Assembly (NCBI GenBank): GCA_044892505.1
Contig: CM097882.1
Span: 202,442,192 to 202,494,000, forward strand
Length of the DNA stretch: 51,809 nucleotides
Source: Schmidtea nova
Taxonomy: Eukaryota
Direction: 5' to 3'
The position numbers and the translations under genes were made by a program. This document shows positions 25,972 through 51,701 of the stretch, one piece after another (position 1 is the stretch's first letter; each line of letters begins with the position of its first letter). The notes below the pieces were generated by a model. It did no database searches. It was not told where the DNA came from and saw only the letters and a list, made by a program, of their open reading frames with translations.

Positions 25972-26535
25972 TTATTTGTAGTTCAACAATACAGAGGGTC
26001 GGATTACATTTAGTAGTTCTTGCTCAGATAGACCACTGAGCAAGTCTACCTCTATTCCGAGACGATCTGCATATGCGCGTCTTTCCCTGCGCTTTTTCGC
26101 TCCTAAGCGATTCCTCCTCTTTGTGCGTTGTGAGCCTGCGGGAATTGTATTTGTCACTGTAGTAGCCGTGGCTATGGTCGATGCATTCTCTGTTTGGGTG
26201 CTCGTAGTCACCGCTATCGTATCTATCCATCGATTAAAGGGGCTCGCTCTGATCACGGGGCGTAGTTGTTCGGTGATGAAGTCGCGGGTCGATACCTTCA
26301 AATAATTCGCCAACTCCAATTTCAGGGCTGCAATCTCTCTGGCATGTTCCTCAGCTACTCGTTCTGCCCTGTACCTAGCCTGCAGGATGGACTTAACCCG
26401 CTCTGGATTAAACCATGTCGTTTTAACCCGCTGATGCTCCTCATTCAGCTGCCTTAATCGATTCTCCAGCACCCGTGCGCGCGCCTTGTGTTCTCGCGCC
26501 TCTTGCTTGAAGTCTCTGCCCTTGGGTTCCGTCAT
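25972..26535 (-). CDS. LTR-encoded ORF L2, 187 aa: coiled coil, TSTQTE (LC8-type motif), Arg-rich motif, Leu-rich C-terminus
   Basis: Intact; 23-aa block VKTTWFNPERVKSILQARYRAER is identical to the solo copy with 12 synonymous codon differences; AATAAA overlaps the stop (25971-25976). Confidence 0.85.
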   Translation of the reverse strand: MTEPKGRDFKQEAREHKARARVLENRLRQLNEEHQRVKTTWFNPERVKSILQARYRAERVAEEHAREIAALKLELANYLKVSTRDFITEQLRPVIRASPFNRWIDTIAVTTSTQTENASTIATATTVTNTIPAGSQRTKRRNRLGAKKRRERRAYADRLGIEVDLLSGLSEQELLNVIRPSVLLNYK

Positions 26536-26726
26536 GTCTGTAAATATATCATTAATGTTGGTATATGTTATGTGTCTGATTTTTCGGTCATCTTATCGTC
26601 GTTAAACAACTCCGTTCTATCATCATATTATTTCCATGCGCTCGAAAGAAAAACAAAACAAGACCGTTTTCACACAAATACATATATTTTGTAACTACGA
26701 CAATCATTCTCTCTCGGCTGCGACAA

Positions 26727-27362
26727 TCAACTGAAGGCCCTCAAGTCCTGATCGGCAGGATGCTCGTCGCGACGAATTCCATTCTCCTCATACATTTCTG
26801 GGGCTGGGGTCCAACTCAGCTTATCTTTGTAGATAAACACCTCCCAGAGGCGAAGCTCCTTGGGCTCGGGGTGTTGTTCCACGGAAACACTTCCTGGTGC
26901 ATTGGAATAAGTGAAGACTTCCTCAGTGTAGCGACACCGAGGCCTGTCTAGCAGCAGGTATCCTAATTGGAAAAGAGCCCTTCCGGTCATCATTCCATTG
27001 CTCAATACCCAGCGGGGTCGTCTCTGCTCGTCGAGAAATTGGAAGAACCATCTAGCGGTCCTTGGTTCGGCAGGGTCCATGGTGGACATCCAATCGGGGT
27101 CTCCTTCCCATCGTAATTGTAACGTGAAGGCGCAAGCCGGAACATCTGCGGCTGCACTCATATGGTGTCTTGTCCACCGCCGTAGGTGGCGACGCGCAGT
27201 TTCGCTAATTCTGCGTGGGGCTTCCATTTCTCCCTCGATGGTGGGGATCCTCCTTGGCCGGACGACGGGACGGATGCGTCGGGGTTTCCGGACGACATAA
27301 TCTTCCATTTTCATCTGTCGATAGGTGCTCGGACTTCTTTGATATTCTTCGGTCTTTATCAT
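26727..27362 (-). CDS. LTR-encoded ORF L1, 211 aa, basic N-terminus plus unknown globular domain
   Basis: Intact; homolog in the solo LTR; strong acceptor CCTAAC...TCTTCTTGTCTTCAG 4 nt before ATG. Confidence 0.85.
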   Translation of the reverse strand: MIKTEEYQRSPSTYRQMKMEDYVVRKPRRIRPVVRPRRIPTIEGEMEAPRRISETARRHLRRWTRHHMSAAADVPACAFTLQLRWEGDPDWMSTMDPAEPRTARWFFQFLDEQRRPRWVLSNGMMTGRALFQLGYLLLDRPRCRYTEEVFTYSNAPGSVSVEQHPEPKELRLWEVFIYKDKLSWTPAPEMYEENGIRRDEHPADQDLRAFS

Positions 27363-28323
27363 TTTTCTGAAGACAAGAAGATGTGATTGTGATGAATTTG
27401 TTAGGTGCGTGCAATTATTTATAATCGGCGACCTACTCGACTCAAGAGTAAAACTCTGTAGGTTGCCGTTGGTGTTTCAGTGTTAGATCGGTTCGATGTT
27501 CAAGATAGTAGGTAGGTTGTATGTTATCGTCATGTGGTTGAGTGTATTCACTATGTCAAGTTGCTTAACTGATTTGGCCACGCAAAAATTCAGTGCAGTT
27601 TATGACAATCTTTATTCATTTATGATGATCACTTGATCATTTATTATGTTAGAATATCATCATTTCATAGACCATTTGGGTTTATATCTACAGCAATCAT
27701 ACTCACTCGCATCTCAGGTGTTATCTCCATACCTCAGGTTCAACTATCAAGAATCACATCATCCGGGGAACATGATCGACCCCTTATTCAGGTTAATTGG
27801 GTACAGATTGTACTTGCATTACATTTCGTGGGTCTATCCTTCGTACCCTTCGAGAGGTGTACATATATGTTGGGATATCCTGTGGATTCATGGTTTACCT
27901 CTGACCCTAGCCCTGTCGGTCTCTGACTCACCTGACTCATGTAGTGTATATCTCCATACTAACCCTTTGCACAAAACCGTCGTTACTCTACTCGACTTCA
28001 CGACGCTGGACACTCCTGGTCTATTAACAAGCCTTTTATGTATACTGATTTACTCGGTGTCGTCGTGACAGATGATACGTCCTTCAATTGCTTTCACCCA
28101 TACCGATGTTGCGATGGCATGAGATATCCGATGTGCCCTTCCCCCTTCCGCTTGTTAAATATTTAGAACACCTATGGTCCCGCCGCATCAGCACCTCACA
28201 ACCGAAAGATTGTGTTGCGCTGAGAGGCCCCAAGAATCCGTCAGGCTGTTAGGCCTCCGGAAAACCTTATGGATTTTAACATATTTATATAATTATGAGG
28301 GTTTAAAAGACTAATACAACGTG

Positions 28324-28463
28324 AATTACCTTTTATTTCTTTCCAAATTGGTTTCACAATGTTCTCAGTAGTCACAAACAATTCACACTTGGTAAAGATA
28401 ACATTGTCAAATACTGATTTGACTTCAGTATTTATACTCCACCGGTGTTGTTGGTTAGCCAAT
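28324..28463 (-). promoter_or_regulatory. LTR promoter and leader-exon splice donor
   Basis: ATTGG 28459-28463, TATAAATA 28429-28436, TCAGT 28413-28417, donor AAG|GTAATT at 28330/28329; same layout as the solo LTR. Confidence 0.65.
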
Positions 28464-28838
28464 CAGCATCGAGTATGTGTGTATGTTTGCTTCATTATTT
28501 TGTGTTGTCGGCTTTTTGCTGCCTAACTTAACTTGCCGATTTGTTTGGTTAATCATGCGGTAAGTTTTTCTTAGTCATCAATTTATTTTATTTTATTTTT
28601 GTTTATAGGTCTTTGGTGACATCCGCCCACGCGCTGTCATATTCAGATTTTATCTGCTTCGCATGAGTAAGTTTTGAAGATTTTTGTTGTTTTGATTAAT
28701 ATTTTATTTCTTTTAGATGTTGCCGCCTATTTTGTTACGCTTTGGTGTTGGTAATTTATTTTGTTGTTATTCTGTTGTAAATTTATTTTATTGATTGTAT
28801 ATTATTTTCAGATGCTGCTCGATTTGGCTGGCCCAACA

Positions 28839-28858
28839 TCACTCGGGGTCCCCTAAAA
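28839..28858 (-). other. Polypurine-tract position (atypical): TTTTAGGGGACCCCGAGTGA|TG
   Basis: Immediately precedes the 3' LTR TG; G-rich but interrupted by CCCC. Confidence 0.45.
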
Positions 28859-29038
28859 TTGCGTCCCGCAATTACATGCATATACCTACATCAACATACA
28901 TAAAAAGTTCGTGACAGAACTTACATGCAAAACCACATAAGGTGGTAGCTTTTATACACATTTATACAAATACACCTTGTCATTGTCATGTTTATATTGT
29001 TACACAGTTCAATGTTTCTGGCTCATAGGGGTCGATTT

Positions 29039-29563
29039 TCAGGTCCTTTCACTGGTTGACTGCATTTCGTATCGGGCTTGAATTTGTCGTAGATGGCTTC
29101 TCATTCTTTGGTGGGTTTTGGCTTCTCTTCTGGCGCATCTACACATTATCGTTTGTTGTTGTTTGAGGCTTCTGATTCGATATAGGGTATACGTGATCAC
29201 TATGATCAAGATGATTGTCAGTATTGTCATTGTGACTATTCCCACGATGATCCATCTGTTTCGGATTTCGGATTCGATTTGGGTTTGACCTTTGATTGGC
29301 TTTAGGTGATCTTGAAATGTTCTATGGATTTCTCGGATCTTCTCGATTTGATTGAATAGGGTTTGTACGGGTTTGCGATGATCATGACTGATCCGCATTT
29401 GTCGGATTAATTGTTTCAAGTCTTCTCTGACTTCGTTTAGTTGTTTTTCGATCTCTTGGGATATCTCGTTTGACAGGGTTCTTTGGATTTCGGTTGTTGA
29501 ACAGTTCATGATTGTTGTAGCTAACATAATCGTTAGGATTGATAGGGTTTTGAGCCAGATCAT
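29039..29563 (-). CDS. 174-aa type I membrane protein (signal peptide, coiled-coil ectodomain, TM, basic tail)
   Basis: MIWLKTLSILTIMLATTIMNC signal-like; TM WIIVGIVTMTILTIILIIVITYTLY; acceptor CAG 2 nt before ATG. Confidence 0.8.
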   Translation of the reverse strand: MIWLKTLSILTIMLATTIMNCSTTEIQRTLSNEISQEIEKQLNEVREDLKQLIRQMRISHDHRKPVQTLFNQIEKIREIHRTFQDHLKPIKGQTQIESEIRNRWIIVGIVTMTILTIILIIVITYTLYRIRSLKQQQTIMCRCARREAKTHQRMRSHLRQIQARYEMQSTSERT

Positions 29564-29636
29564 TTCTGATTATTCTACTGATTAATACCTGTTACATCGA
29601 TTTGTACATTTTTACACACGGATTTTTCGCCTCTTT

Positions 29637-30800
29637 TTACACATCCGTCTCCTCTGGTTCATGAAACCCTTCATCTTGGAGTTCCATTGGTGGTGGTGGT
29701 ATAAACGGTAACCACACCACTCTGCTTCTCCACATTGCAATTTCATCTTGATACGTTCGAGAGATTTGTATCTCTTCATCTAACAGATACTCCATGTAAT
29801 CTGATTGTTCGCTTAGAGTTTCAATTTGTCTTTCCATCTCTTCCACTTTTCTCTTCAGGGCTTCTACTTCTGTAGGTTCGGTTTCTACTTCTATGGTTTC
29901 TTTCAGGGTTATTATTTGTTGTTTCAGCTCCTCGTTTTCTTTCGTCAAGTTCGTTATGTTTTCCTCGTAAGCTCGGTTTGATTCCGCATGTCTTTCTTTC
30001 ACAGCTTTCAGTTCCATTTTCTTTTGGGTCACCACCCCTTGATAACCATTTACATCTCTTTCCAAGCTTTCTTTTTCCCTGTTCAACTTTTGTCTTTCCG
30101 CTTCCTCTTTTTGTCTAATACCTCGCATTTCTCCATTTATCATCTGTACTTGCCATTGCGCTTTCTTTAGTTCCTTTGCCTGCTCTCGAATAAATCGTTG
30201 TCGTTTTCGACTCCATTCTTTGTTTGCTTGTTCTTGTCGTTTTCTCTGTTCTAATTCCTCTTTCAATTCGTCTATCTCTTGATACAGTTTCCAATCTTCG
30301 CTGTGTGCTGTCCTTCTGATTATTTCTTTGGCTTCTTTATACACTCGTTTCGACTCCATCTTCCAATGTCTCGCTTGAGCCTTGATTGCTAGTATTTTTA
30401 CCTCCATCTTTTCCTCTTGTTTCTCCTTCTCTTCTCTTCGCGTTTTCATCATATTTTTATAATGTTCTGCTTGTTTCCTCATCAACTGATAGGTCTCTTC
30501 TATCTTCTGTCGACTTCGTGCATTCGTTCCTTTTAGCTTCTCTATTTGTGTTGTCAGTTGTACTATCTCTTTGTTTACTTCCTCGAGTTCTAGTTGATAT
30601 AACTCCATTCGTCGTTCGCATTCCAGTTTCTCGTAGAAATTGTTTGTCATCACTTCGTGTAACTCTCTGGTTCTTTGTTCCACTTCCATTTTACATCTCT
30701 TTTCGATTTCTCTTTCGATTTCTCTTTCTATTGTTTCTTGTTCGTTCAACATCTCGCTTCTCGTTTCATCTTCGATTACATGTTCATTTGCGTTTTCCAT
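29637..30800 (-). CDS. 387-aa long coiled-coil protein with C-terminal PPPP and acidic tail
   Basis: Intact E/K/Q/R-rich heptad sequence; acceptor TTACAG 1 nt before ATG. Confidence 0.8.
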   Translation of the reverse strand: MENANEHVIEDETRSEMLNEQETIEREIEREIEKRCKMEVEQRTRELHEVMTNNFYEKLECERRMELYQLELEEVNKEIVQLTTQIEKLKGTNARSRQKIEETYQLMRKQAEHYKNMMKTRREEKEKQEEKMEVKILAIKAQARHWKMESKRVYKEAKEIIRRTAHSEDWKLYQEIDELKEELEQRKRQEQANKEWSRKRQRFIREQAKELKKAQWQVQMINGEMRGIRQKEEAERQKLNREKESLERDVNGYQGVVTQKKMELKAVKERHAESNRAYEENITNLTKENEELKQQIITLKETIEVETEPTEVEALKRKVEEMERQIETLSEQSDYMEYLLDEEIQISRTYQDEIAMWRSRVVWLPFIPPPPMELQDEGFHEPEETDV

Positions 30801-30889: not shown

Positions 30890-32302
30890 CTACTCCAACC
30901 ATCCTTTCGTTGACTTCGTGTTCATCACTGTTGTACTTGCTTTCTTTTCGATTTCCAATTCTACGTATAGGTTGTCGTCGTACAACATTTCCCACATTGT
31001 TTGGTGTGGTATGAATTTTGGTTCTCCAGTCGCTAATGAACATTCTGTGGTTGGTCTTTTGTAAGCTTCGTGCTTACCATCAATTTTGAATACTCTCGCT
31101 ATTGTTTCTTTCGAGTTTTTCACTCTCATTATAGCCTTTGTTTCTAGTGGCCATTCCAATATGTCGTCGTAACCACCTTTACACAACGCAAAGAATAATG
31201 ACACATGCGTTTCCTTTCCTGATCCATCTCCATTTGGATAAATTCTCATCCGGACTTTGTATTCATTTTTCCACAGATAGAATGGTGGACTTGTTACCGA
31301 CACTTGACTTCCTGTTTTTGCTGCTGTGAATTTGTCATTGAAGTTCTTGATTTTCCATACATATGGTGCAACAGGTAAACTCTCGATATCCTCTGCATCT
31401 CGCACCCATATTTGATGTCGCACGTTTACTTCTTTTACTAGCGTCTCTATGACTTTGATTTTCTCCATCATTTTCTCTCTGGTGAGCTCGAATTGCTCTC
31501 TCGTTTCCAGTAATAACTCTGTCATGATCCTCTGAGATTCAATTTCTTTTCCTAGTTTCTGTATGGTTTGTTCCATTCCGTTCAAATTTTCTGTTAACAT
31601 CTCTGCGTGTTGTACCGTCTCGGTTTCCAAATGTTCTTTCATTTCTTTGCTCGTTTTCTTTACTACACATCCTTGTTTGCTCCATACGCACTTTCTTGGC
31701 CTTGCTTCACATCGTTCCCAATGTTCTTTCAACATCACCTCTTCTCTGGCTCCACAATTACTTGGACACATTCCTCTGAATTTTCCGCACACTTTCTCTT
31801 CTGCTACATTGAGATGTTCTGTTTCAATTATCTCTCTTGTCTCCCTTTGTTCACAGTATTGACATTCTATTATTTCTGCTTTGCACTCGTTCTTGTGACT
31901 TTTCAACTGCTTGATGGTTATCGTCTGTTGACACTTTTCACATGTTGCTTTCTTGTTTTCGCATTTCTCCAGATGTTGTCTGAGTTCGATTATTTGACCT
32001 TTCCACTCACATGGTTGGTTTATACATTCTGTTTTTATCTTCCAGATCTCCTTTTGGATTGCTTTGTCTGGTTTCGTCTCGTTGATTAGTAGTTTATCGT
32101 CACACTCTGGACACTTTCTTGTCTCACTTTCACTGATTATTTGCAATATACACTTGGTGCACATCCTGCATCCACATTCCGTTTGCCTCGGTTTTAACAG
32201 TAGATTTTTACACTTTACACACGTCACATTTACTCCCCATTGTCGATTTTCTCTTCTTAGCATCTCGATCGTTTGGTAATCTGCTTCACTTTCTGCTCTC
32301 AT
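30890..32302 (-). CDS. TRAF-family protein, 470 aa (RING, TRAF zinc fingers, coiled coil, MATH)
   Basis: RING CVKC...CGCRMCTKC...CPEC; zinc fingers CINQPCEW...HLEKC; MATH VWKIKNF...SPPFY...RIYPNGDGSGKETHVSLFFALCKGGYDDILEWP...PKFI; intronless. Confidence 0.95.
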   Translation of the reverse strand: MRAESEADYQTIEMLRRENRQWGVNVTCVKCKNLLLKPRQTECGCRMCTKCILQIISESETRKCPECDDKLLINETKPDKAIQKEIWKIKTECINQPCEWKGQIIELRQHLEKCENKKATCEKCQQTITIKQLKSHKNECKAEIIECQYCEQRETREIIETEHLNVAEEKVCGKFRGMCPSNCGAREEVMLKEHWERCEARPRKCVWSKQGCVVKKTSKEMKEHLETETVQHAEMLTENLNGMEQTIQKLGKEIESQRIMTELLLETREQFELTREKMMEKIKVIETLVKEVNVRHQIWVRDAEDIESLPVAPYVWKIKNFNDKFTAAKTGSQVSVTSPPFYLWKNEYKVRMRIYPNGDGSGKETHVSLFFALCKGGYDDILEWPLETKAIMRVKNSKETIARVFKIDGKHEAYKRPTTECSLATGEPKFIPHQTMWEMLYDDNLYVELEIEKKASTTVMNTKSTKGWLE

Positions 32303-32392: not shown

Positions 32393-32743
32393 CTATACAT
32401 CCTCAGTTGAATCCGCCTCTGGATACACGTCTATTTCATTTACAATCCAGCTCGTCCAACTATCTGGTATCTCTTCCTCTTCATGTCTCGTTAATCGGTC
32501 AATTTCCTCTGCTTGCCAGTTGTTCACTTCATTCAATGTTCGGTTCTCGTTCTGTAATTCGTTTATCTGTATTTGTTGGATCTCGATTTTGTTCATTGCT
32601 TCGAAATTACAGTTATAACTCTCGGTTAATAATTGCGTTTTTGCCGTCAACTGGCTCTGTAATTCATTTACTGTTCTGGCTAGCAGGTCGCATTGTACTT
32701 TCCATCTCGTCATCATTGACATCTCGATATTTTCTTGGTTCAT
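32393..32743 (-). CDS. 116-aa coiled-coil acidic protein
   Basis: Intact, same strand and spacing as neighbours; acceptor TAG 7 nt before ATG. Confidence 0.7.
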   Translation of the reverse strand: MNQENIEMSMMTRWKVQCDLLARTVNELQSQLTAKTQLLTESYNCNFEAMNKIEIQQIQINELQNENRTLNEVNNWQAEEIDRLTRHEEEEIPDSWTSWIVNEIDVYPEADSTEDV

Positions 32744-32866: not shown

Positions 32867-35524
32867 CTATACAACTATTACTGGTTTTCCTTCGTACAGT
32901 TCTTCGTCCTCGATCTGTACCCACATCTCTTCGTGTTTTGATCGTCTTCTCAGCTCTTCTCGTACTTCTTTTGGTAGTTTTTTGTTGTAATTCGTGACCT
33001 TTACGTCCGGCCATTTTACTGCTATGGTCTTATTTCTCATGCCATATCTCCAACATACTATCATGATCGTTATCAGCGGTATACACGCTATGAATACTCC
33101 CATGCTGATTAATCCCATTACTGTTTTTCCAATGCTCATTCTTGGAGTCTCACTTTGGTTTATCATCACGCCATATTGACCTTTCCATTCTGCTTCCCAT
33201 TGTTCGTATTGTTGTTGTCTCCGTCTGACTTCTTCGATCACTTTCTCGGGTTCCCATCTTTCTTGTTGATTTTGTAGTATTTCCTCCGTCTCTGTTTGTT
33301 CTCTTTTCTGACTCAATTCTCGGAATTCTAACTTGCGGGTTCCCCCTTTTATCGTTATGTTCCTTGGCGTGTAATAGGTTTCGCACCTTTCTTGTTGATT
33401 TCCTTGTGCGTCTACTTCTTCGATTGCACACACTTCGTATTCTGCGTTTGTTTTCAACCTCCTCATTTCTACCTCGATTATTTCCCTTTTGTCATTTGAT
33501 GTCTTTTGACAGTTTCGTGGAGACTCTCTCATACTGTTTGGCATTAATGTCCAACAGATTTCTAGGACCTTTTTATGGATCTTCCATATTATCAGAGTCG
33601 TTGATTCCGGTTCGTTTTTTATTGACGTCCCTTCTGTTGTCTGTTGAGTTCCTTGACTGTTGGTTGTCGTGGTTCTTCTTGACTTTCTTTTCCTCTGTCG
33701 ACTTCCTCCCATTTCGATCGTTCTTGTACCGTTAATTTGCTCTGGCGTCTTGTACAGTCTGCACTCCAGGCTTCTTTGTATTACTTCTCTTATTCTTCGG
33801 ATTACGCAAATTTCGTAAGCTTGTCCGACTTCGAATCCATTTAGTTGAAACGGGATTCCTCGTTCTCTCGTTTTACATTGCGGTATTATGTTGTTGGTCG
33901 ATACTCCGATGTATTTTCTCCAACACATCCCAATTGTTCTCCGACCAATGTTTTTTATCTCCACCGTTACTACTTCATTCGCAATCGTTTCTTGATCTTG
34001 TTTCTTTCTTTTTGGGAATTCAATTATCTCCTTTGCTTGGAACACTTTACACTCGCTTGTTCCTGGTCTGTTTCCGTTTGCTGCTTTTTCCATGAGACAT
34101 AGTTCACATTTTCTATCTGTCTCCATTTCAGTTATCTCTATTTCCTCATTTGTCTCCGCCTCTACTATTTCTCTTGTTTCGCTGATTCCAATTACCTCAT
34201 TGTTTCGTCCCCAACATCTTCCATTCGTTGTTCGTTGATCTTGGATGTTTACTAACGTCATCACGCTGATATCTATGTCCTCCATGATTCTCTTAATGAG
34301 GATTAATATTAATGCTACACATATCAATTCTGGTTGGAATGTTAATTTGCCCGCTGAATTTCTGGTTATTCTTTCTTTCTCTGTTCGGTTTCTGATTCCT
34401 TCTTCTGCTTCAGATTGATTCTTCCCTTTCTCTGATTCCACTTCTGTTCTTCTCGTTGTCTCTTCGCTTCTTTTTCCAATCCATTTCTGTATTTTCAGCG
34501 CTTCTGTTGCTTTATATAATTGACATGCAGTTACCTGAGGTGCTTTTGGTTCTCCTCTCTGCTTTATTGCGCATATTATGTATGACTTTTCTTTCTCTAA
34601 TCCTTTGATTTGGATGACGTCCCGCTTCAAATCTGACAATATACACTTCAGCGTATCGTTTTTCCTCATATTCTCTTTCCAGCATATTCTTTCGTATACT
34701 TCATTTCTTCTAATTATCTCTAGCGTGACGTATTGTTTCTTGGCTTCTCCTTGTCCGATGATTGTTATCAATATCGCAATACACAACATTTCCGGTCTCA
34801 AAAGTAGACTTCCTGTTCGTTTTCCATAGTTTGTACGTTCGTCTTTTGTTCCATTGTTTTCTCGTTCTTCGGCTTCCCCTTTCTTGTCTTTTTCCGTTGG
34901 CTTTGGTTCTTCTTGTCTTTCTTTTTCATTATCCTCTGTTCTTTTGTTGTCATTGTCTTCGTTGTTCTTTTCGTTGTTACTTTTGTCGTCGAAGTCTCTG
35001 TAACCACCCCCTGGTCCTTTGAAAATGTCGTCCTCGACATTAATTTCTTTAATCAGTCTTTCATACGCTTGAACCGCGAGTGTGCTAGACTCGAATTCAC
35101 GTATTTCCATCTCCTTGGATGGTTCCCTGTCTTCTAGTCTACTTTGCTTGATTGCTCCTTTGGCATTTGTCCATTCATTCACATATTTTCTGAACAAGTC
35201 TTTCCATCTTCCCGTTCGTTCGGGTTCCTTTGGATTGTTCGTGAACTTCAAATCTCTTCTCTTTAAGAATTCTTCTACTATCTCTGGCTTTTTGTGTCTT
35301 AACAACGCGCTTCTGATACACCAATTCTGATTCTGTTCCATATGGTCATTGATCTTGAATGCCGGTTCCTTGGTGATCGGATTCACCCATGTTAGCAATG
35401 CTCTTGTTTTCTCTATGTCGTGTATCATTACTGTCAGACTGAAATTCTTTACGTTATTTGCCAGGTATTCTATGTCCTCTTGTCTCTTGATGGACTTTAT
35501 GAACTTGATCATCTCGAAATTGTT
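32867..35524 (-). CDS. Polyprotein C-terminal segment: end of ankyrin repeats, acidic linker, signal-like segments, ~4 FN3-like repeats, TM, short tail
   Basis: In frame with 35525-43984 across one TAG (IDIAIQ*NNFEMIKF); repeats such as IKGLEKEKSYIICA, LNGFEVGQAYEICV, LKTNAEYEVCA; TM GLISMGVFIACIPLITIMIVCW. Confidence 0.75.
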   Translation of the reverse strand, partial: NNFEMIKFIKSIKRQEDIEYLANNVKNFSLTVMIHDIEKTRALLTWVNPITKEPAFKINDHMEQNQNWCIRSALLRHKKPEIVEEFLKRRDLKFTNNPKEPERTGRWKDLFRKYVNEWTNAKGAIKQSRLEDREPSKEMEIREFESSTLAVQAYERLIKEINVEDDIFKGPGGGYRDFDDKSNNEKNNEDNDNKRTEDNEKERQEEPKPTEKDKKGEAEERENNGTKDERTNYGKRTGSLLLRPEMLCIAILITIIGQGEAKKQYVTLEIIRRNEVYERICWKENMRKNDTLKCILSDLKRDVIQIKGLEKEKSYIICAIKQRGEPKAPQVTACQLYKATEALKIQKWIGKRSEETTRRTEVESEKGKNQSEAEEGIRNRTEKERITRNSAGKLTFQPELICVALILILIKRIMEDIDISVMTLVNIQDQRTTNGRCWGRNNEVIGISETREIVEAETNEEIEITEMETDRKCELCLMEKAANGNRPGTSECKVFQAKEIIEFPKRKKQDQETIANEVVTVEIKNIGRRTIGMCWRKYIGVSTNNIIPQCKTRERGIPFQLNGFEVGQAYEICVIRRIREVIQRSLECRLYKTPEQINGTRTIEMGGSRQRKRKSRRTTTTNSQGTQQTTEGTSIKNEPESTTLIIWKIHKKVLEICWTLMPNSMRESPRNCQKTSNDKREIIEVEMRRLKTNAEYEVCAIEEVDAQGNQQERCETYYTPRNITIKGGTRKLEFRELSQKREQTETEEILQNQQERWEPEKVIEEVRRRQQQYEQWEAEWKGQYGVMINQSETPRMSIGKTVMGLISMGVFIACIPLITIMIVCWRYGMRNKTIAVKWPDVKVTNYNKKLPKEVREELRRRSKHEEMWVQIEDEELYEGKPVIVV

Positions 35525-36790: not shown

Positions 36791-37149
36791 CTGAGGGATC
36801 TCCTCTAGCAGCGTCCTTGTTATTGGATGTGCTGTTCTGTCTTTTGCATACTCCATTACATTCTTTCGAACTTCTGACAGTATATTGAAATCGTGCCACC
36901 ACCTCCATTCCGGTATAATTTCTCTGGTTTTCCTTGCCAGTTCTTTGATGTCTATTATCTCCCTTCGGTTGTCCTCTAGACTTGTTTGCGGCTTTTGTTG
37001 TACTCGCAACATACTGATTCTCGCCGTCTGTGATCTTGTCATTACCCGTTTCTCTGGTGATAGAGTTGCTGTCTTTGGTATTTTCCTGCATCGACATGCA
37101 TTCACGTATATTGGTCTTACCAATGGATTGTTCACCAATCGTACTCGCA

Positions 37150-40480: not shown

Positions 40481-40699
40481 TGTGGACATAACCGCTATCG
40501 TGTGCGTGTCTTCTAACGAGTTTACACTTCCACCTCGTTTTACTTTGCATCCTTCGGGAATTATCGGGTATATACTTGTCATCGGCATCATCTGCATCAT
40601 ATTCGGCTTCGCTTTGTATATTGGTTCGTTATACATTGACTGAGGTGGAGCGCTGTATCTCCAATTCTCAACTGCACTCTTTTCGTTATACTGTGGAAT

Positions 40700-42850
40700 C
40701 TGGTTTATATTCGCTTGTCCTCCTCGATCGTCATCGTCATCGTCGTCGTTGCTTGAATCATCTTGTGTTCGATATCCCTTCACTCTTTCCCATAATCCTT
40801 TCCTTTCTTTCTTGAGTTGTCGCCTTGCTTGTTCGTCTTGCATTATCTTTTTGAATTTTCTTCCGACATCTTCATTTGTTCCTTTCATTTTTGCAAGTAT
40901 TTTCAACAATCTCTTTATTCGATGAATGTCTTTTGAGTGTCCGTGTAACACCATCGTTTTCGCAAGGAATGGTAAAAACCCTACTACCATCTTCCAATTC
41001 ACTTTCTTTTCTCTTTTGTAGATATCGAAACACGCTAACATTTGCGTTATTATCACTCTGACGATTTGTATTATCAATATAACACCCAGTATTCCAGCCA
41101 TCATTTGTCCAAATATCAGGAATCTTCCCCACATTGCCTTCATCATATTTTCTGTGGCTTTCTTGAAATGTGCCGGTGACAACAACAGTTCGTAATTCGG
41201 TCCTTCTCGATAATTCGTTCCTCCCGTTATTGTTACGATATTTGACAGTAATGCTTCTCTTCTTGCCGGAAATAGTATATTCTGTCTTGCTGCTTCCAGA
41301 TCTTTTGGACTATAGATTCCGTTGTTTGAGACATCTACGTCACTGAACTGTCTATCCTTCGATAACTGCATTAGCTCAAATTCTCTTGGTGCTAATACTT
41401 CTGTTCTTCCTGGGAACATAACCCATTTGCCATCTGGCTTCTGATAAAGCGGTCCGTACGCGTTACTACAGTTGAATGGATTTGGTTCAAACCCTGGTGG
41501 ATTGATGATTCTCGTCACCGGTTGAACGTATCGTACTTTTCCTTTGTAATCGATTTCTAGTTCGTTTGTACATTGTCCAGGTTTCAACTGCGTTGTTGCT
41601 GCTAGCGATGCATGTGTCTTTTCGCAAATGTATACGTACATTGCCTCTCCAACCACTCTTCCGAAATGTCCTTCTCTCAGTGGTAATAACGGCATCGCGC
41701 TATCTGGATTCGTAATCGCTACGGCCAACTTTGTCTTCAATATTTCCCGATTCAGTATACAATCGTTGTTTATCAGATCATAGTACACTTTTTGCAATGA
41801 GGCTTGTCCTCTATGGAATAAGAAATCCATTTTATTATTCACATACAAGTGTAGCTTGATATCCATGGTGTCGATCTTGGGTTTCGCATTCGGCACTTCT
41901 TGCTTTGACACGTATATTCCTGGATAGTTCGTTTCGTATACTGTTGTACTGCACTTAAGGGTTGCTTTCCCTTTTATGAATCTCATGCCCACATCCTGAT
42001 TTGTGGTTATCAACACTGTTGGTGTGGTTCTCATTTCTATCCGTTTCTCTCTATGATCCGGTTTCAATTGTCTTTTATTCTCTAAAGCCTCTTTGAGATG
42101 TTTTGCTCTAGCTTTGTCATCATCATCTTCTTCTTGGAATGTTTTCCCTTGAATTTCGTCAAACTTTGCTCCTTGTAGCAGTTGTAATTGACATTCGTTC
42201 ACTTTTGGTTTGTATACCAATGTTGACATTCCCGTTTGACACATGCTTCTGTCAATTTTACACATGGATAACGTTTTCATTTCTCCTGTTGTTGGTTCGA
42301 AGAATGCTTCGTAACTTTTCAGTTCAACTATGTACGTATCCATTACTACTAAGTTGGTTGCGGGTACTCCGAATATTGGGTAGGTTTCTCCTTGACAATA
42401 CCCTTCTCCTCCCGTAATCCGTCCTGCTACATAATACGTCTGCTGTAACATCATTCCTGGCTTTCCTTTTATCTTGATTTTATCTCTCGTTGTTACTTCT
42501 CCATGTTTGAACAATGCTTCGCAGTCTTCTCCTTGCAACACAATTGGTTCTCTTTCGGTTCCTGGCATGACAATTGCTGAATAATGTCCTCTACCGCAAT
42601 AGAATGCGAATCTCGTCTTTTGCACTTTGCATTCATTCACCATTGTCTTTATTAGTTCTGCCTCTTGATACACGTGATACCATTGTTCCTTTTTGATCTC
42701 TTTCAATTTTACTGGAGTTGCATCTTTGCACTGCTCCGTACCTCTCAATGAGTACTTTTCTCCTAACTTCATTTGATCACAGTCAAATACTTCAAATGTT
42801 GTTACACCCTCTGTGCTTAACAACCATACTATCATCATCATGATTATCGA
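40700..42850 (-). CDS. env: Envelope glycoprotein, chuvirus (Jingchuvirales)-like class III fusion type, between Gag and Pol
   Basis: Signal-like NSIIMMMIVWLLS then FEVFDC...YSLRGTEQC; CKVQKTRFAFYCGRGHYS; YVNNKMDFL...VYYDLINNDCILNREIL...GEAMYVYIC; TM FLIFGQMMAGILGVILIIQIVRVII. Family assignment comes from my recollection of the motif pattern, not from a search. Confidence 0.8.
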
Positions 42851-42964
42851 GTTCAAATTCAACGTCGATCTTCCGTTTCCTTGCATCGTTTGTCTATTCT
42901 CCATTTCTCTCAATACTCCTTCAAGTTTCTTTCTCATCACGTTTGACCCTTCTTTTGTCTGGTT

Positions 42965-43360
42965 CTCTTTTATGAACTTTTCCCATCCTCCTTTTCTGAG
43001 GATATACGGTTCAATTTCTTTCTCGATAATCATCGCCGTATTTTTAATATGTCTTCCCATCGGGCTTGACTTCGGACTTTCTCGGCTTAGCGTTAACAAA
43101 TTGTATATCGTATACGAGATTGCTACTAGATATTTGCTGTCCGTTTCTGCTCCGTTTAGTAGCCTTTTTACCAACGTCGTGGTTCCTTGCCAATCTAGAT
43201 GATTCGATTTTGTTTTCGCCTTGATCAGTTCTGGCATAATCGGTGCTATCGCGTTGTGTAGCATCCTTGCCTTCGTACCGGGTTCGTTTATCCGCCACAG
43301 ATTCTTTAATTCTGGGTCAATTATCGCTAACACATCCATTATCGTTTTGGTGAGCCATTC
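42965..43360 (-). CDS. Divergent Bcl-2-like domain (within polyprotein)
   Basis: BH2-like IEPYILRKGGWEKFIKE (compare Bcl-xL LEPWIQENGGWDTFVE); BH1-position helix LVKRLLNGAETDSKYLVAISY lacks NWGR. Confidence 0.6.
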
Positions 43361-43987
43361 CTCTCCTTGGCAGACTTGATTCTCCTCTTTTCCTCTGATT
43401 TCTGCGATTTTGTCTAATTTCTTCAAGCAAATCTCCCATTGCTCTTGTCTCCTTTCTTCCCTTGTCTTTGGGATTGCTGTTGCTGGATCTATCTTTGGTC
43501 TTCCTCTTGGTCGTTTTTCCATTCCAGTTCCGGTTTCTACAAATCTCGTTACTCTTCCCGTTTCTTCCGTAACATCTCTTCCTTCGTTTGCTCGTTGTTC
43601 TAACCATCTTTCCATTTCTTGAGTAAACTGTGGTTGTTCTTGCTCGTCTTCTGAATCGTTTACCATTTCTATGACTACCTCCTGTTCCACTCCTTGATCG
43701 TCGATTTCTGCTGGTGACGTTATTGGCATCTCTATTATTCTGTCAAAAATATTCGCCGTTGGTTTTTGAGTCAACTTTGTTAATTCTTCTATCGCCTCAT
43801 CACTGTCTGTTAGTATCTCATCGACGTCATACGCTTCTGGCGGTGTTCTCTCTCTCGTTTTTATTGGTGTTGTCCTTGCTTGTCCTGAACTTGTTCCTGG
43901 GGTCATTGTTGACTTCATCGGACTTGGTGTACTCATGCTTCCTTTCGCTTTCTTTTCCTCTTTAAACTTCAGTGGTTGACCCACTAT

Positions 43988-46576
43988 CTATGCCACGGTT
44001 AACGTATTCATTAGATCCAATTGCACTGGTGTCAGCCAGATTTCCAAATTGTTATCCAACGATCGTCCTTGATGTTGCAGGTGGAATGGTAGTTCGTACA
44101 TCAGTTTCTCTTTAACACTTTTCACTTTTTCCGTTAGCATCACCCAAAACTCTTCTTTTCTTTGATTCGGATACATTATCCTCAAATGTATTTTCTGTGG
44201 CGTTTCTTCCGCAAACTCTTTGTTTCTCCACTTTTTTATTGCATCGTCTAGTTGCTCTGGACACCACTCGTTAACTCTCTTGTATTCTGCTATCGCTTTA
44301 GCTACTTTTCTCAAGTTCGTCATGTCTTCTCCATTTGAGATTATGAATTGTGCTAAGCCTTTTATTGTTTGTCTTTTTCCCCGAGTATTTCCTCTCAATA
44401 GCTCGATCAATTCACTCGTTTTCTGTTTCTCCAATTCTGCCCATATTACTGCAGTTTCTGGTCCGTCTAAGTCCGTTGGTAATATCCTCCTTGTTACCAT
44501 ACATATCCGTTTCGTATTCCGTTCATATCTGTCTTCTCCTTCCGGATCTTCTTCATATACGCCTCTTTTCACTTTCCAACATTTCTCTTTGTTATCCCAT
44601 TGCTTCTCTACTGGCGTCAATCGTCGTCTGTTAAGATCCAATTCTCCCAATATTGTCTCCCATTCTGGCTTCATCTGCCAGTTCCGATAGATTTCTACTA
44701 TCTGCCTCAACTTGCGCATAACGTCCTCTTGTCGTTTCTTTCTCCTTTCCTCATCTCTTGGTGTTGCTCTTGGCACATCATCCATTCTGATGACATGTAT
44801 TGTTTGATAATTATCCCATATGCCAATTTTATACGCTCGTCTTTCGTCACGTTCATTCAGTAGGTGTTCTTTGTATTTTATCGCAATGTCATCCTCGAAT
44901 TCATCTTCCCGTTCTCGTTGTAATATCGTCTCATTGATGACATCTACTATTTCTCCCACTTTACTATCTGGTATTACCTCAATTTGTCTTGTCTCTTCAT
45001 TCGGCAATCTCACGGTAATCTTCAGATCTGATACCTCTCCTCGTTTAAACATTTCTTTCCCCATCTTGGCGATTAACTTATCCGTTTTGAAATTTGAGTG
45101 TCTCGTTTGACTGGTATCTCGTATGTTCTCGATACACTGTTTCAAATTCTCATACTCGCTTTTCGTCAATTCCTTTCGATGTTTCTTGATTTGTTGAATG
45201 ATCTGTTCTATCATCGTATTCAAATTCTCCGCCAAGATTCTCTCTTTTGCCTCTATCAACTGAGGTTTTATTCTCATCTCGTAACACGTATTCGCTTCTT
45301 TGACGATTCCTTGTAAGTTCTCTTCCTTTTTGGTGTTGCATATTGATAACGTCGTTATTTCTCCTGGCCAGATGCCTGTGTCTATCATATGCGTGCCTTT
45401 TCTCACCAATCCGTTTTGTGAGTATATGAACTTGTCTTTGTACGAGCTTCCCAATCTGTCCTCAACCCATCGATATATTCCATCCGTCATTGGGTTCTTT
45501 ATCCAGATTCTCGGTGAACACTCGTTTATCCATATTTGTATTACGTATTCGTTCAGTGGCTCTTTCAATAACTTCTCTATGAATTCTTGTATTACCCTCA
45601 CTTCTCCTTCTTGTAACCACTCTTTATACTTCGTCTGCCATACTGCTCGTATAAACTTTCGATATCGTTTCGTGTCGATAAACTCCTCGTTATGGATTAC
45701 TTCCAACGCGTTATCCATCAGCTTCTGAATTTCGTCTTCCGTTACTGACAATGTTTCTATTGTCTCGACTACTTCCATCTTTTTGTCCTCGTTTTCCGGT
45801 TCCTTTAGCATGTCTCCTGCCAGACTGCTAACTTCGCTGTCGTCTTCTTCATCTGACAACTCTTGTCTTGGGTGTCTCAGCATCCCAATATGTGCGGTTG
45901 GTCTCGTTTCGTTTTTGCTAACTTCTTGTATTAGTTCATTCTCGTTTCCTGTTACTTCAGCTTTTCCCATTCTTTTCTCCAATTCGTCTATTTCTTCCAA
46001 CCGTCTTCGTCTTATTTTTCCCTTGAATATTCGACTGATCCGAGTTTGATGTTTCACTGGTGGTGGGATTTTCTCCGGTTCCACCTCTCTGATGATCATC
46101 ACGTTTATTTTTGTCTCCGTTACTCCCATATCTTCCCATATATCAGTCATCTTTAACTTCACTTCCGGTAAATCTTCTGTTTGTAGGAATGCTTCTCTGG
46201 GCAGTTTCATCACTCCCGGCATCATCTCATTTACTTTATTGAACAATCTTCCCACTTCTTCTTTTACATCGTATTTGAATCGCCACACGTGATCATTCGG
46301 CATGATCACCAACATTCCTCTTTGTTTGATTCTCACTTCCTCTTCTTGATTCGTTTCTTTTTCTGTTTCTTTTTCTTTTTCTACTTCTTCATCCTTTTGA
46401 TTCTGCTCTGCGGCTTCTACTTCCTGATTCACTTCTTCTTGTTTCTGCTCTTCGTTTCTTTTCTCTTTAATTTCTAACTCGTCTGACTCATCCTGCTGCT
46501 TCTCTTCCATCATTGCTCGCATCATGTTGATCCTTGGATTTCCCTTTTTTAACTGTTGTAATCGTTGTTGCCTGAC
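43988..46576 (-). CDS. Polyprotein segment with three ubiquitin-like (beta-grasp) domains
   Basis: Ubl-like stretches GMLVIMPNDHVWRFKY... (~46320-46085), LKITVRLPNEETRQIEVIPDSKVGEI...TIHVIR (~45030-44785), IHLRIMYPNQRKEEFWV...NTLTV (~44195-43991); in frame with both neighbours. Confidence 0.6.
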   Translation of the reverse strand, partial: VRQQRLQQLKKGNPRINMMRAMMEEKQQDESDELEIKEKRNEEQKQEEVNQEVEAAEQNQKDEEVEKEKETEKETNQEEEVRIKQRGMLVIMPNDHVWRFKYDVKEEVGRLFNKVNEMMPGVMKLPREAFLQTEDLPEVKLKMTDIWEDMGVTETKINVMIIREVEPEKIPPPVKHQTRISRIFKGKIRRRRLEEIDELEKRMGKAEVTGNENELIQEVSKNETRPTAHIGMLRHPRQELSDEEDDSEVSSLAGDMLKEPENEDKKMEVVETIETLSVTEDEIQKLMDNALEVIHNEEFIDTKRYRKFIRAVWQTKYKEWLQEGEVRVIQEFIEKLLKEPLNEYVIQIWINECSPRIWIKNPMTDGIYRWVEDRLGSSYKDKFIYSQNGLVRKGTHMIDTGIWPGEITTLSICNTKKEENLQGIVKEANTCYEMRIKPQLIEAKERILAENLNTMIEQIIQQIKKHRKELTKSEYENLKQCIENIRDTSQTRHSNFKTDKLIAKMGKEMFKRGEVSDLKITVRLPNEETRQIEVIPDSKVGEIVDVINETILQREREDEFEDDIAIKYKEHLLNERDERRAYKIGIWDNYQTIHVIRMDDVPRATPRDEERRKKRQEDVMRKLRQIVEIYRNWQMKPEWETILGELDLNRRRLTPVEKQWDNKEKCWKVKRGVYEEDPEGEDRYERNTKRICMVTRRILPTDLDGPETAVIWAELEKQKTSELIELLRGNTRGKRQTIKGLAQFIISNGEDMTNLRKVAKAIAEYKRVNEWCPEQLDDAIKKWRNKEFAEETPQKIHLRIMYPNQRKEEFWVMLTEKVKSVKEKLMYELPFHLQHQGRSLDNNLEIWLTPVQLDLMNTLTVA

Positions 46577-48262
46577 TTATTCTTCTTCTCGTCGTACTCT
46601 AGCCCATTCTTGATTATGTTTCTGTTGACTCTCTCTGTTTTCTCTTTCGGCCTCAGCTTCTATTAACTGGATCATGTTTATCTTTGGTTGAGCAGCTTGC
46701 TGGCTTCCCTTTGCCATGCTTTCGATTATCTCGTGTAATCTGGATACCTCCTGTCTCAACTTAGCTTCTTTCATACTAGCTTCGTTTGCACTGCTGTTTG
46801 GGTTGTTCCGTTGTTGACCTTGATTCCCATAGCTTGGTCGATTCCCGTAATTCGGTCTATTTCCACTGTTTGACCAACTTCTCTGTTGATTACAGTCTCT
46901 TGACATGTGTCCGGTTTTCCCACATGTGTAACACGTTTTCCCATAACATCGATTTTCTGAGTGACCCTTTTGTCCACACAGTTTACAGGCTACATTCTGA
47001 AAACACTCTTGTTGCCAATGTCCGTTTTTCCCACACGTCTGACATTGCCTATTCTGCCTGTCATTGTAACTATTTCCTCCATTCGGGTTCACCGTGATAT
47101 ATCCGTTATTTTTCCTCGCTGGCGGTTCTTTGAACAATCTCTGCGAATGGGGAATACTTTGATTCATGTTTCTTTTTCCTTGTTCTTCATCTTCTGTCGT
47201 TTTTCCCATTACCGCCGTAATTCTCATGTCATTCATTGCCATATGCAATTCGAATAGGTTGGCTGCTTCCAACGCTTCATCTACTGTTTTACATCCTTTG
47301 CATCCCACTTGTGCTCTGATGTCAGGTCTCCTGAGACCTCGTACGAATAACGCTGTCATCAATTCTTCGTCTACTGGGCTTCCTCTATTGAATGCCAGTT
47401 TCGCCAACTTTCTTAATTCACTTGCGTACACTGCATTTGACTCGTTTCTCCTCTGTTTTCTTGCTGAGAACTCATCGAACGCTTCGTTCAACACTTTATT
47501 TATCCCAAACGTCTGTTGGAAGAACTCCTTGATTGCTTCCCACGTTCTGGGTGGATTACTTCCCGATCTCTTCTCAATATACAGATCCAATGCGCTATCT
47601 TTCAAGTATAGCGGGATTCGATTCGCTAACGTTTCTGCACTCCATCCGCATATATCCACGAATATGCCAAATTCCTTTAGAAACGTATCCAATCTACTGG
47701 CGTCTCCATTGAATGGTTCGCCCTTGAATTTTTCTCTTAGATCCTCTCTGTGATCACTCATCCCGATTCCACTATCTTGGAATACTGTACTAGTTTTCTT
47801 TACTTCTAGTTCACCACTTGTTTCTGAATTCGACTCTTCTTCTTCACCACTCTCTGTTTCGTTATCTCTTGATTCGCTTCTTGTTCTGTTTTCCCTGACT
47901 AGTTCACTGTCTATCGTCTCTACTTCGTTTTGTACTTCTAGATCTTCTGGGGTTTCTTCTTGGTTCTCTTTGTTACTCGAATTATCGCGGATCTCTACTT
48001 GTTTGTTCTTTTGTTGCTTAGGCTTGTTACCTGTTCTTGTCCTTTTTGCTGCTTTTCTTTCTGCTTCCGTTAAGATTGGTATTATACCTGATCTTGTTTC
48101 TCGTCCCTCAATTTTGTCTATTCCTCAACTGCTTATATTCTCAACCGATTTTCTACTTCGCTTTTGCTTTGCTTCTTCTTTGATTTGTTTCCTTTGATTG
48201 CTCTGACTGCTAGATTGCCTTGAATTGCTTGATTGATTTGTTTCCTTAAAACAAATAATCAC
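46577..48262 (-). CDS. gag: Gag (Ty3-type capsid plus three CCHC knuckles) with an in-frame acidic/basic N-terminal extension
   Basis: PFNGDASRLDTFL...PLYLKDSALDLY capsid; CQTCGKNGHWQQEC, CKLCGQKGHSENRC, CYTCGKTGHMSRDC; frame stays open upstream of ATG 47761 to 48262 apart from TGA at 48125-48127. Confidence 0.9.
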
Positions 48263-49102: not shown

Positions 49103-49420
49103 CCTTCACTTACTCACTTTACTTTGCTACTCCTCCTTGTATGCATACTTTAACATCATTAGGCCACATAATCAGCTTTACTCGCATTTATCAATACCCA
49201 GGTGCGCACCTTCAACTCTCTCGTTATTAATTCGGTTTCTTTCAACCCTTATTCCTCATTATTCATTTTCACTATTCATCATTTATCCTCATTATCAATT
49301 ATTCGTCTCTATTATCGCTTATTGATCTTCACTATCCGGATAGTTTTATGCTTTATTTAGTCCTCATCTGCCTCACTTCGTCGTCTTTCTCGTGGGCTTT
49401 TACTCAATATTTTATTTCGA

Positions 49421-50015
49421 ACGAGAACTATGCTCACTGCTGAGAACTATGCTCACTAACGAGAACTATGCTCAATGACGAGAACTATGCTCAATGACGA
49501 GAACTATGCTCACTGACGAGAACTATGCTCACTGACGAGAACTATGCTCACTGACGAGAACTATGCTCAATGACGAGAACTATGCTCAATGACGAGAACT
49601 ATGCTCACTGACGAGAACTATGCTCAATGACGAGAACTATGCTCACTGGCAAAACATGGTTGTTATGAGGGTTTTGCCTACTGATGGAAACTCTTTGCTC
49701 CGGGGGCTATGCTCCCCGATGAGAACTATGCTCACTGATGGTGACTACAGGAATTATGTTTCCTGATGAGAACTAAGCTCACTACGATGATTATGTTTAT
49801 TTCTGAGAACTACGCTCACTGATGAGGACTATGTTCGCTGGTCTTGTGTTTATTACTGAGAACTCTGCTCACTACGAGAACTATGCTCACTATGGTGTTG
49901 TGTTTTATGACGAGACCTACGCTCACTAGGATGTTATGTTTTATGACGAGACCTATGCTCACTATGATGTTATTTTTATGACGAGACCTATGCTCACTAT
50001 GAGACCTATGCTCAC
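49421..50015. repeat. 19-bp tandem repeat (GACGAGAACTATGCTCAMT), ~12 clean units to ~49650, then degenerate expanded units
   Basis: Directly visible; internal GAG-N7-CTC dyad. Confidence 0.9.
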
Positions 50016-50709
50016 GAACGAAAACTCGAAATATCATCTCTCAGTGGTTGCATGTGTTGCTTCGGGATGTTCCTCCCATTGGTCACTTATGCTTCTTCGG
50101 AGAATCTATTGTCGCGTTTCGTTAAGTTCTATCTTTCAAGAACTATGGGCAAATCCTTTCTCTTTAGGACCCCTTTTATCATTTCCTTTCTTTCAAGGAT
50201 TTCCTTTAACCTCGAGTTTTCCATTTACTCGGTTCATCTGTTATACCCCTTTATTCTATTATCTATTCGTCGACTTCTCTACTTGATTTTACTTTATGCG
50301 AGCTGATTACGTGCCTTTCCTCATATACCACATTTATCCCCTTTTATTATTCATTTCCTCATTCTCCTTCTCTACTGATCAGTTTATCATCCTATTTTTA
50401 TAGTTTTTCTGCGCGCGCCTAAACCTCATTGGGTTGTCCTTACCTTTCACCCCAACCAAAATATATAAAAAGATCGCATTGGTCCACCGATGCACGATGT
50501 GGTGATCAGTCACATCACAAGGGTTTTCCAATATCCGCGATTGGCCCCTTTCTACACATCTCGGGTAAGTTGATCAGTTGGTTCCCCCCAATGGGTGCTT
50601 ATCGGACTACTCGTGAGTAGCTCATTATTACTTAGGTCATTTTTACCAAATCATCTTTAAACCCTCATAATTTCAATAACAACTGCACTTGTTCAAAACT
50701 TTATTTCTA

Positions 50710-51168
50710 TTACAAGTACACTGTTATTTTCTCGGATACGGGAAGGTTGCACATAGGACATCGTTCGTTTATTTTACAGTCATTACAGAATCGAAAATGC
50801 CCACACGGCAACAACATTATCTGTATCTTATTCATTTCACAGATATAACACGTCAGGTACTGTTTCGTATATTCGGTTGTTAGTCTTGTCCACTCATCGT
50901 GTTTTGTTGTTAACTGTTGCTCTAGCCTGTGGCACTCGATATTCATTTCAGGGTTGTTTAATCTTTCTCTGTACCATTTGTATCGCGTTGTTGTATCCAC
51001 TGTTATCTTATTCTCGCTTATGCTCATCATCATTTCGGCTCTTTCTGTGTTGTTTGTCGGTTCGTGGTATCCTTCTACCTCGAGTCGTCTTAACTTCCTC
51101 ATTATTGTCTCCACTGTTTCGTTGTTTGTTTCGAAAAACGTTTGCATTTCTTTTATTTTGTTCTCCAT
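50710..51168 (-). CDS. 152-aa protein: coiled coil plus C-terminal IAP/MDM2-type RING (C3HC4), no BIR
   Basis: CYICEMNKIQIMLLPCGHFRFCNDCKINERCPMCNLPVSEKITVYL-stop; acceptor TTCATTCAG 3 nt before ATG; AATAAA at 50700-50705. Confidence 0.85.
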   Translation of the reverse strand: MENKIKEMQTFFETNNETVETIMRKLRRLEVEGYHEPTNNTERAEMMMSISENKITVDTTTRYKWYRERLNNPEMNIECHRLEQQLTTKHDEWTRLTTEYTKQYLTCYICEMNKIQIMLLPCGHFRFCNDCKINERCPMCNLPVSEKITVYL

Positions 51169-51701
51169 CCCCTGAATGAATTACCGTTAATTTCTGTCGA
51201 TCTTTATTTATTATTTATTATTTCTATTCTATGGTAGCCCTACTGTTCGCTTTCTGTTGTTCTGTTTTGCGTCGTTACTTGCGTATCCCCCCGTGTTCTT
51301 GAATGTCGCCCCGACATGATCATTGCTAGTTGCTCACACTCATACCATTTTCATGCACGCTTTTCAGCATACTTTTACCTCACGTCATGCATACTTTTCA
51401 TCACTTTTCGTACTGTTATTCCACATATTATTCCTCATACTTCATTCATCCCCATACTTACATTCCATTATCATTCATACTTTCATTCTCATGCATACTT
51501 TCATCACGTTCATCAATCTCATTATTTTACACTCATACTTTTATTTATTATTTTTCAACCCGATTCATTCTTGCTTCAGGACCCTCAAACCCTCTATTAT
51601 TTACTTTACTTTTCCTCGCTAAATTCAATTCCATCCCGGTTCAGGCGCTCTAACACTGTCCGCAGATATCGAATTCAATTTTTCCCACAAAGATCGATTT
51701 A

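Follow-up and report, generated by a model that had tools for sequence, protein, structure and literature searches.

A Burro-like giant retrotransposon of Schmidtea nova with an intron-bearing long terminal repeat and candidate splice acceptors ahead of its genes

Planarian genomes contain Burro elements in abundance. Retroviruses and some retrotransposons are known to make spliced subgenomic RNAs; in HIV-1 and in the adenovirus major late unit, one 5′ leader serves many acceptors, and the adenovirus unit also possesses several poly(A) sites. The described planarian giant Ty3/gypsy elements, Burro and GYPSM1, are ~30 kb in length and encode a polyprotein of ~4,900–5,100 residues that carries ankyrins and in which Env lies between Gag and the protease (PR) (PMC6431247). 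One Burro element is reported, second-hand in PMC13465017, to aid regeneration via an anti-apoptotic cargo protein. Here, we describe a Burro-like element in a 51,809-nucleotide stretch of the Schmidtea nova genome (assembly GCA_044892505.1, contig CM097882.1, positions 202,442,192–202,494,000; hereafter the window, to which all positions refer) and consider how its genes might be expressed. An earlier note on this DNA had proposed that one promoter yields many monocistronic mRNAs, with a splice acceptor just ahead of every stand-alone open reading frame (ORF).

The right half of the window is a Ty3/gypsy long terminal repeat (LTR) retrotransposon on the minus strand, 29,391 bp (~29.4 kb) in length, flanked by a 4-bp target site duplication, CAGA. 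Its LTRs are 3,253 bp each with TG..CA ends, and a single mismatch separates the 5′ and 3′ copies. Pfam matches along the element progress from a RING finger (ORF starting at 51168) through Gag, a viral fusion protein, PR, reverse transcriptase (RT), RNase H (RH), integrase (IN) and ankyrins to TRAF. Within pol, the order RVP, RVT_1, RT_RNaseH, Integrase_H2C2 and rve (PR-RT-RH-IN) is that of Ty3/gypsy elements; the Monjiviricetes_fusion match (Env) precedes RVP in the frame, and Ank_2, MATH_2 and zf-C3HC4_3 were also matched. BIR and BCL2-like motifs had no Pfam match in the element; the review's assignments of such motifs came partly from HHpred. Judged by this architecture, the element matches the Burro giant gypsies of planarians and is here called “Burro-like”. 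The motif directly after the 5′ LTR is a putative primer-binding site that may be tRNA-Pro-like.

Seven stand-alone ORFs flank the polyprotein frame or reside in the LTR, and a YAG trinucleotide precedes the ATG of each (7/7) by 1–7 nt; in comparison, 129 of the 647 other sense-strand ATGs in the element (20%) possess a YAG within 7 nt, for a p of about 1e-5. The distances given by the earlier note (3, 7, 1, 1, 2, 4 and 2 nt on the minus strand, and 4 and 2 nt in a solo LTR of a related family) are all correct; its tally of nine out of nine reduces to seven independent cases, because the two solo LTR sites are homologues of those at 27362 and 26535. Four further ATG-started ORFs (47761, 46525, 43936, 35512) have no YAG within 7 nt, the nearest being at 10 nt, 27 nt, none within 40 nt, and 12 nt, respectively. 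Their exclusion is fair because they constitute one frame, interrupted by stops at 46579, 43990 and 35527 that are absent in 6/6, 5/5 and 6/6 of the other copies covering the sites. The ratio of nonsynonymous to synonymous polymorphism (pN/pS) is 0.16–0.37 for all seven stand-alone ORFs, computed over part of the ORF for the 174-aa gene and LTR ORF1; a route to their translation is therefore needed.

Conservation of the acceptor-like sites was assessed across loci selected by search rather than sampled at random, with 150 RING-gene protein matches scored and 1,286 LTR candidates identified. In 31/33 unspliced contexts of LTR ORF1 and 30/31 of LTR ORF2, the homologous ATG has a YAG no more than 7 nt away, with two intron-less LTRs set aside and five (ORF1) and one (ORF2) loci without a matching ATG left uncounted. 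Each of the 50 loci examined for the RING ORF, among them this copy, possesses the acceptor, as either CAG or TAG. Among 75 copies of the four-gene 3′ array, the acceptor AG deviates from the column majority at only 1 of 593 bases, as against 437/27,191 (1.6%) for other spacer positions and 2,224/35,250 (6.3%) for TRAF third positions. A sister family, the proteins of which are 31–56% identical to those described here, retains YAG 0–3 nt before six of seven ORFs and AAG before the seventh. By these alignments, acceptor-like sites are shown to be conserved beyond chance, and in the LTRs the acceptors are retained while the surrounding sequence turns over: the LTR interior (25790–28410) diverges by 13–40% between copies, as compared to 4–7% for the internal region. 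As a separate observation on this minus-strand interval, the intron, ORF1 and the ORF2 start move as a linked block while the leader varies independently, resembling a swappable, hypervariable LTR cassette.

The LTR promoter is followed by a short leader exon that terminates at a splice donor; transcription would begin near 28405. The presence of a donor after the promoter in both LTR families, put forward by the earlier note, holds at 28330|28329 and at 13445|13446. The earlier note did not mention that an AATAAA (28337–28332) abuts the leader donor on its 5′ side. Distinct leaders differ in length and sequence among copies, yet terminate at the donor: GT is present in 67 of 72, and the adjoining AATAAA in 62 of those 67. 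Loci L196 and L069 were rejected as leader junctions, being donor mutants. An inverted repeat, TACTGA-N7-TCAGTA (28412–28430, minus strand), overlaps the TATA box in both LTR families and is absent from the sister family. Since the promoter, leader and two genes all reside within the LTR, a solo LTR would form a two-gene unit complete in itself.

Direct support for splicing was afforded by genomic copies that lack predicted introns. A search for promoters whose leader runs into an ATG identified three LTRs elsewhere in the genome in which the leader is fused to LTR ORF1. In L128/L130, a 3′ LTR of 2,307 bp, the leader end is joined to the ORF1 start, and L182, which is 97% identical to L130 downstream, holds an 856-nt GT..AG intron at the L130 junction point. 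In L129/L134, a solo LTR flanked by a GTAT duplication, the leader is likewise joined to ORF1, and L150, 95% identical to L134 upstream, is interrupted precisely at the junction by a GT..AG intron of 768 nt. L163 is the third such junction, with a close unspliced relative lacking among the LTRs compared. The simplest reading of these intron-less LTRs would be reverse transcription of spliced RNA. The loss of intron 1 could have taken place at the 5′ end of the genomic RNA (the R and U5 regions of the LTR, together ~2.8 kb) or in a long U3 region at its 3′ end; linkage between stretches of the LTR, used to locate R/U5, showed recombination to be pervasive.

In the 3′ array, one copy (L029/L050) lacks 29619–29566, a 54-nt GT..AG piece that ends at the 29566 acceptor and cannot be slid. 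This loss is taken to show that the 29566 site can serve as a 3′ splice site in cis, and on the testimony of such copies cis-splicing is shown for two acceptors, those of LTR ORF1 (27367) and 29566. Copy L166 is missing 95 nt of the second spacer, one end lying one base off the TRAF acceptor; the loss falls short of an exact GT..AG excision, the base needed for exactness is found in 0/38 unspliced loci tallied, and the loss was not counted as a splice. A 3.5-kb deletion in L178 was ruled out as a splice event, as its ends are not at splice sites. The deletion scan overlooks losses beside divergent sequence, and did not pick up that of L130. Among the joints listed for four sequencing runs (15/23 and 15/65), none matched a predicted splice; these reads are of unknown kind, with DNA-like low depth on the host flanks, and neither the joints nor depth differences over the LTR were used as evidence either way.

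Taken together, a model for the expression of the element emerges that we regard as probable, if by no great measure: one promoter provides a common leader, which is joined in cis to the acceptor before each gene to furnish a set of single-gene mRNAs. A GT..AG intron is removed to join the short LTR leader to LTR ORF1, and the same leader would also be joined to LTR ORF2, the RING gene, the polyprotein (at 48245) and the four 3′ genes, for one TATA promoter, one leader and eight acceptors. Each message would end at a UGUA/AAUAAA-type signal after its own stop. By analogy with foamy viruses and HIV-1, U1 bound at the leader donor may restrain the adjacent AAUAAA, allowing for longer RNAs, and RNA that retains the primer-binding site would be the genome. 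Of the earlier proposal, cis-splicing from the LTR promoter stands on the leader–ORF1 junction in intron-less LTRs and on the 29566 site, which works as a 3′ splice site; the use of the same leader at every acceptor does not yet stand, as no other junction was found in the six pattern searches.

The 3′-end signals required by the common-leader model were queried in the post-stop regions. All five AATAAA motifs to which the earlier note pointed are present; alone, they constitute a weak signal, as the internal region, 22.9 kb in length, has 35 of them (one every 654 nt) and two of the four short spacers have none. By comparison, the eight post-stop regions together contain 22 TGTA words, as opposed to 5.7 in mononucleotide shuffles, with 0/5,000 shuffles reaching 22, and TGTA is the stronger 3′-end signature of the two.

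The polyprotein provides a candidate eighth acceptor, at 48245, that was not part of the earlier note. Of the 1,634 HAG sites that the internal region contains, it is the richest in T (10 of 14 positions; next best, 7), and in two other families a T tract with TAG precedes the polyprotein start by 571 and 517 nt, with no ATG between. The polyprotein ATG lies ~6.8 kb downstream of a cap near the LTR TATA box, behind three ORFs, and translation from a spliced mRNA is thus likely. YTRAY branch-like words lie ahead of five of the eight acceptors, as compared to a 15% background, which is suggestive only. The polyprotein frame also remains open, with no ATG, for 121 codons upstream of its first ATG (47762–48124, minus strand), and for 170 codons in the sister family; across seven copies this stretch has a pN/pS of 0.46 with one stop in frame, as against 0.62–0.73 with 6–8 stops in the other frames, and a non-AUG N-terminal extension is possible. 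The defective copy described here was probably mobilised recently in trans, because it has three in-frame stops and yet its LTRs differ at only 1 of 3,253 bases.

Several observations weigh against the common-leader model. In six exact-pattern genome searches, no junction was found between the leader and LTR ORF2, the RING gene, the polyprotein or the 3′ array. The patterns matched 0, 1 (chance), 1 (junction), 1 (junction), 6 and 10 places; the six comprised one known junction, two unspliced LTRs with variant donors and three unrelated sequences, and the ten comprised one new and one known junction, seven unspliced LTRs and one unrelated sequence. This absence is weak, since the patterns are exact while leaders vary: an exact leader 23-mer matched only 12 places, as opposed to 1,286 LTR candidates. 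Junctions past the primer-binding site, which remove that site, are also not expected to be copied by LTR replication. An ORF2 junction keeps that site and could have been copied, yet none was found, at a power that is low given three events and exact patterns. To reach the 3′ array, the leader would have to be spliced across ~22–25 kb that hold several competing acceptors and poly(A) signals. The 54-nt loss in L029/L050 used a local donor and not the leader, the 3′ array acceptors are pyrimidine-poor (35–45%, against a background of 36%), AATAAA is missing beside the donor-like site of the sister-family leader, and the conservation counts are not independent events, because the copies share ancestry. 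To these is added the spacing of the array. The earlier note's spacers of 123, 90, 89 and 73 nt between the 3′ ORFs were reproduced, and those of the sister family are 125, 92, 113 and 75 nt; this range of 73–125 nt fits the ~100-bp peak for Macrostomum operons given in PMC8629364. Leader splicing onto the four-gene 3′ array is thus a prediction of the model, and with spacers of ~100 nt, the trans-splicing of a spliced leader (SL) forms a live rival there.

Such a rival would keep cis-splicing of the LTR leader to the LTR ORFs, RING gene and polyprotein, and treat the four 3′ genes as an operon in which cleavage at a poly(A) site frees a donor-less RNA, to which the host SL is added at the next acceptor. 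We deem this arrangement rather unlikely, albeit with much to recommend it: the spacers recur in two families and conform to the ≤300 bp by which flatworm operon candidates are defined (PMC12582326) and to the ~100 bp Macrostomum peak, poly(A)-like signals lie 40–70 nt ahead of the next acceptor, the exact-pattern searches returned no junction of leader and array, S. mediterranea is reported to have SL trans-splicing, and the gypsy-related Cer1 has an SL1-spliced mRNA (PMC3315495). Against it stand the use of the 29566 acceptor in cis at least once and the statement, in PMC4558846, that an upstream cis donor out-competes the SL. Flatworm SLs end in AUG; at none of the four array acceptors here would this AUG be in frame, and it would generate upstream frames of 28, 5, 5 and 1 codons, whereas in the sister family it would be in frame at two of four. 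The reading frame of the SL does not decide between the two routes, and the earlier argument that an AUG in frame in only one of nine cases favours cis-splicing carries little force, with three of nine expected by chance. The proposition that the retrotransposon harbours a true operon, with the four 3′ genes, TRAF included, resolved by the host SL, the remaining genes receiving the LTR leader in cis, and intact solo LTRs serving as dispersed two-gene units, we also view as tentative and on the improbable side.

Two further explanations dispense with a distal leader. The short spacers may be small introns or re-initiation linkers, in which the acceptor is used together with nearby words that resemble donors (GTAAAT, GTGTGT), on polycistronic mRNAs with a stop near the next start. 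While the 54-nt GT..AG piece missing from the fourth spacer in L029/L050, the 95 nt missing from the second in L166, and the recurrence of GTAAAT-like words in the spacers of both families are in line with this explanation, losses occur in only 2 of 75 copies and that of L166 is imprecise, the same words are readable as UGUA and AAUAAA, and the LTR, RING and polyprotein acceptors are left unexplained; we judge it very improbable. Slightly less credible again is that the internal ORFs possess promoters of their own, with the YAGs as leftover 5′ untranslated context or chance occurrences. TATAAA-like words in the 123-nt spacer and the internal promoter of foamy viruses (PMC3694450) would speak for it; against it, the sister family does not retain the TATAAATA of spacer 1, conservation is higher at the AG than over the remainder of the spacers, and two acceptors are shown to be used. 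The common-leader model remains the one that we prefer.

Table 1. Positions and properties of the features in the window.
Feature	Position	Strand	Remarks
CCAAT box (GATTGG) and TATA box	28429..28464	−	kept in both LTR families and the sister family
Leader exon	28330..28405	−	5′ end predicted; 3′ end AATAAAAG then GT; donor 28330|28329
LTR intron 1	27367..28329	−	GT..AG, 963 nt; homologous intron missing from L128/L130, L129/L134, L163
LTR ORF1	26727..27362	−	211 aa, no Pfam match; acceptor G 27367; pN/pS 0.23 over core
LTR ORF2	25972..26535	−	187 aa, no Pfam match; acceptor G 26538; pN/pS 0.16; AATAAA overlaps stop
RING-finger ORF	50710..51168	−	152 aa, Pfam zf-C3HC4_3; acceptor G 51172; AATAAA at 50705
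116-aa ORF	32393..32743	−	acceptor G 32751; TAG in 75/75 copies; pN/pS 0.18
TRAF-like ORF (RING, zf-TRAF, MATH)	30890..32302	−	470 aa; acceptor G 32304; TAG in 72/75 copies
387-aa ORF	29637..30800	−	coiled-coil-like by composition; acceptor G 30802; YAG in 75/75 copies; pN/pS 0.24
174-aa ORF	29039..29563	−	two hydrophobic stretches; acceptor G 29566; CAG in 72/75 copies
Candidate polyprotein acceptor	48245..48258	−	AAG preceded by a T tract; polyprotein ATG 483 nt downstream, no ATG between
Gag-Env-PR-RT-RH-IN-ankyrin polyprotein frame	32867..47761	−	4,964 codons, three in-frame stops in this copy
3′ LTR	25588..28840	−	promoter, leader, one intron and two ORFs inside; TG..CA
5′ LTR end	51726..51809	−	remainder past window edge, to window-equivalent 54978
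Primer-binding-site-like motif	51702..51719	−	directly after 5′ LTR; kept in sister family
Related-family solo LTR	12920..16001	+	~71% identity over the aligned parts; acceptors 14180, 15050; donor 13445|13446; ORF1 broken; ORF2 15053–15613

Further features accompany the element. The related-family solo LTR is flanked by 12761–12919, which codes for a C4 zinc finger (Pfam zf-C4), and by an open frame at 16010–16285; the insertion seems to interrupt a nuclear-receptor-like gene, and locus L143 matches both flanks at 72–81%. The stretch that separates the RING gene from the polyprotein holds tandem arrays (48600–50010) with units of 19 nt, 36 nt and ~85 nt, the number of units differing among copies. 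A 114-aa ORF of RING-like type, with 30% identity to the RING gene described here, was encountered twice near a solo LTR (L168, L170) and is possibly a homologue from the host or another element. Outside the element, a 15-nt tandem repeat at 19428–19976 is open in several frames.

In the literature searched, we found no description of an LTR that carries genes and an intron of its own, with one leader ahead of eight candidate acceptors, though the primary Burro papers may cover part of this arrangement. The element type is already known, and it is the putative expression scheme that would be new. These findings provide exact, testable junctions for how Burro-type cargo genes might reach translation, a question unaddressed in the literature read. 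By implication, a solo LTR can be a unit that codes for protein, even the polyprotein may derive from spliced RNA, and probes or RNA interference directed to one part of the element would reach only some of the messages. Were the 3′ array to be resolved by the SL, the element would represent a retroelement operon.

With Burro and GYPSM1 the element has in common the ~30 kb length, the single giant polyprotein, RING and MATH/TRAF domains, and accessory ORFs; the TRAF described here is a stand-alone ORF downstream of pol, whereas in the described elements it is in the polyprotein or upstream (PMC6431247). The Burro section of that paper is silent on LTR-borne genes and on accessory-ORF expression. 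The ~100-nt spacers, with a 3′-end signal followed by an acceptor, are shared with flatworm and nematode SL operons (PMC8629364 and PMC12582326), and Cer1 of Caenorhabditis elegans establishes that a gypsy mRNA can take SL1 (PMC3315495), in one spliced message with no gene array. Relative to foamy viruses (PMC3694450), the AAUAAA here abuts the donor on its 5′ side, the 3.25-kb LTR holds an intron and two genes, and the candidate acceptors number eight, with suppression by U1 proposed by analogy. As in HIV-1 and adenovirus, one 5′ leader faces many acceptors, each just ahead of a start codon; the difference is that the system described here is an endogenous Ty3/gypsy element, in which the leader junction is shown for the first acceptor only.

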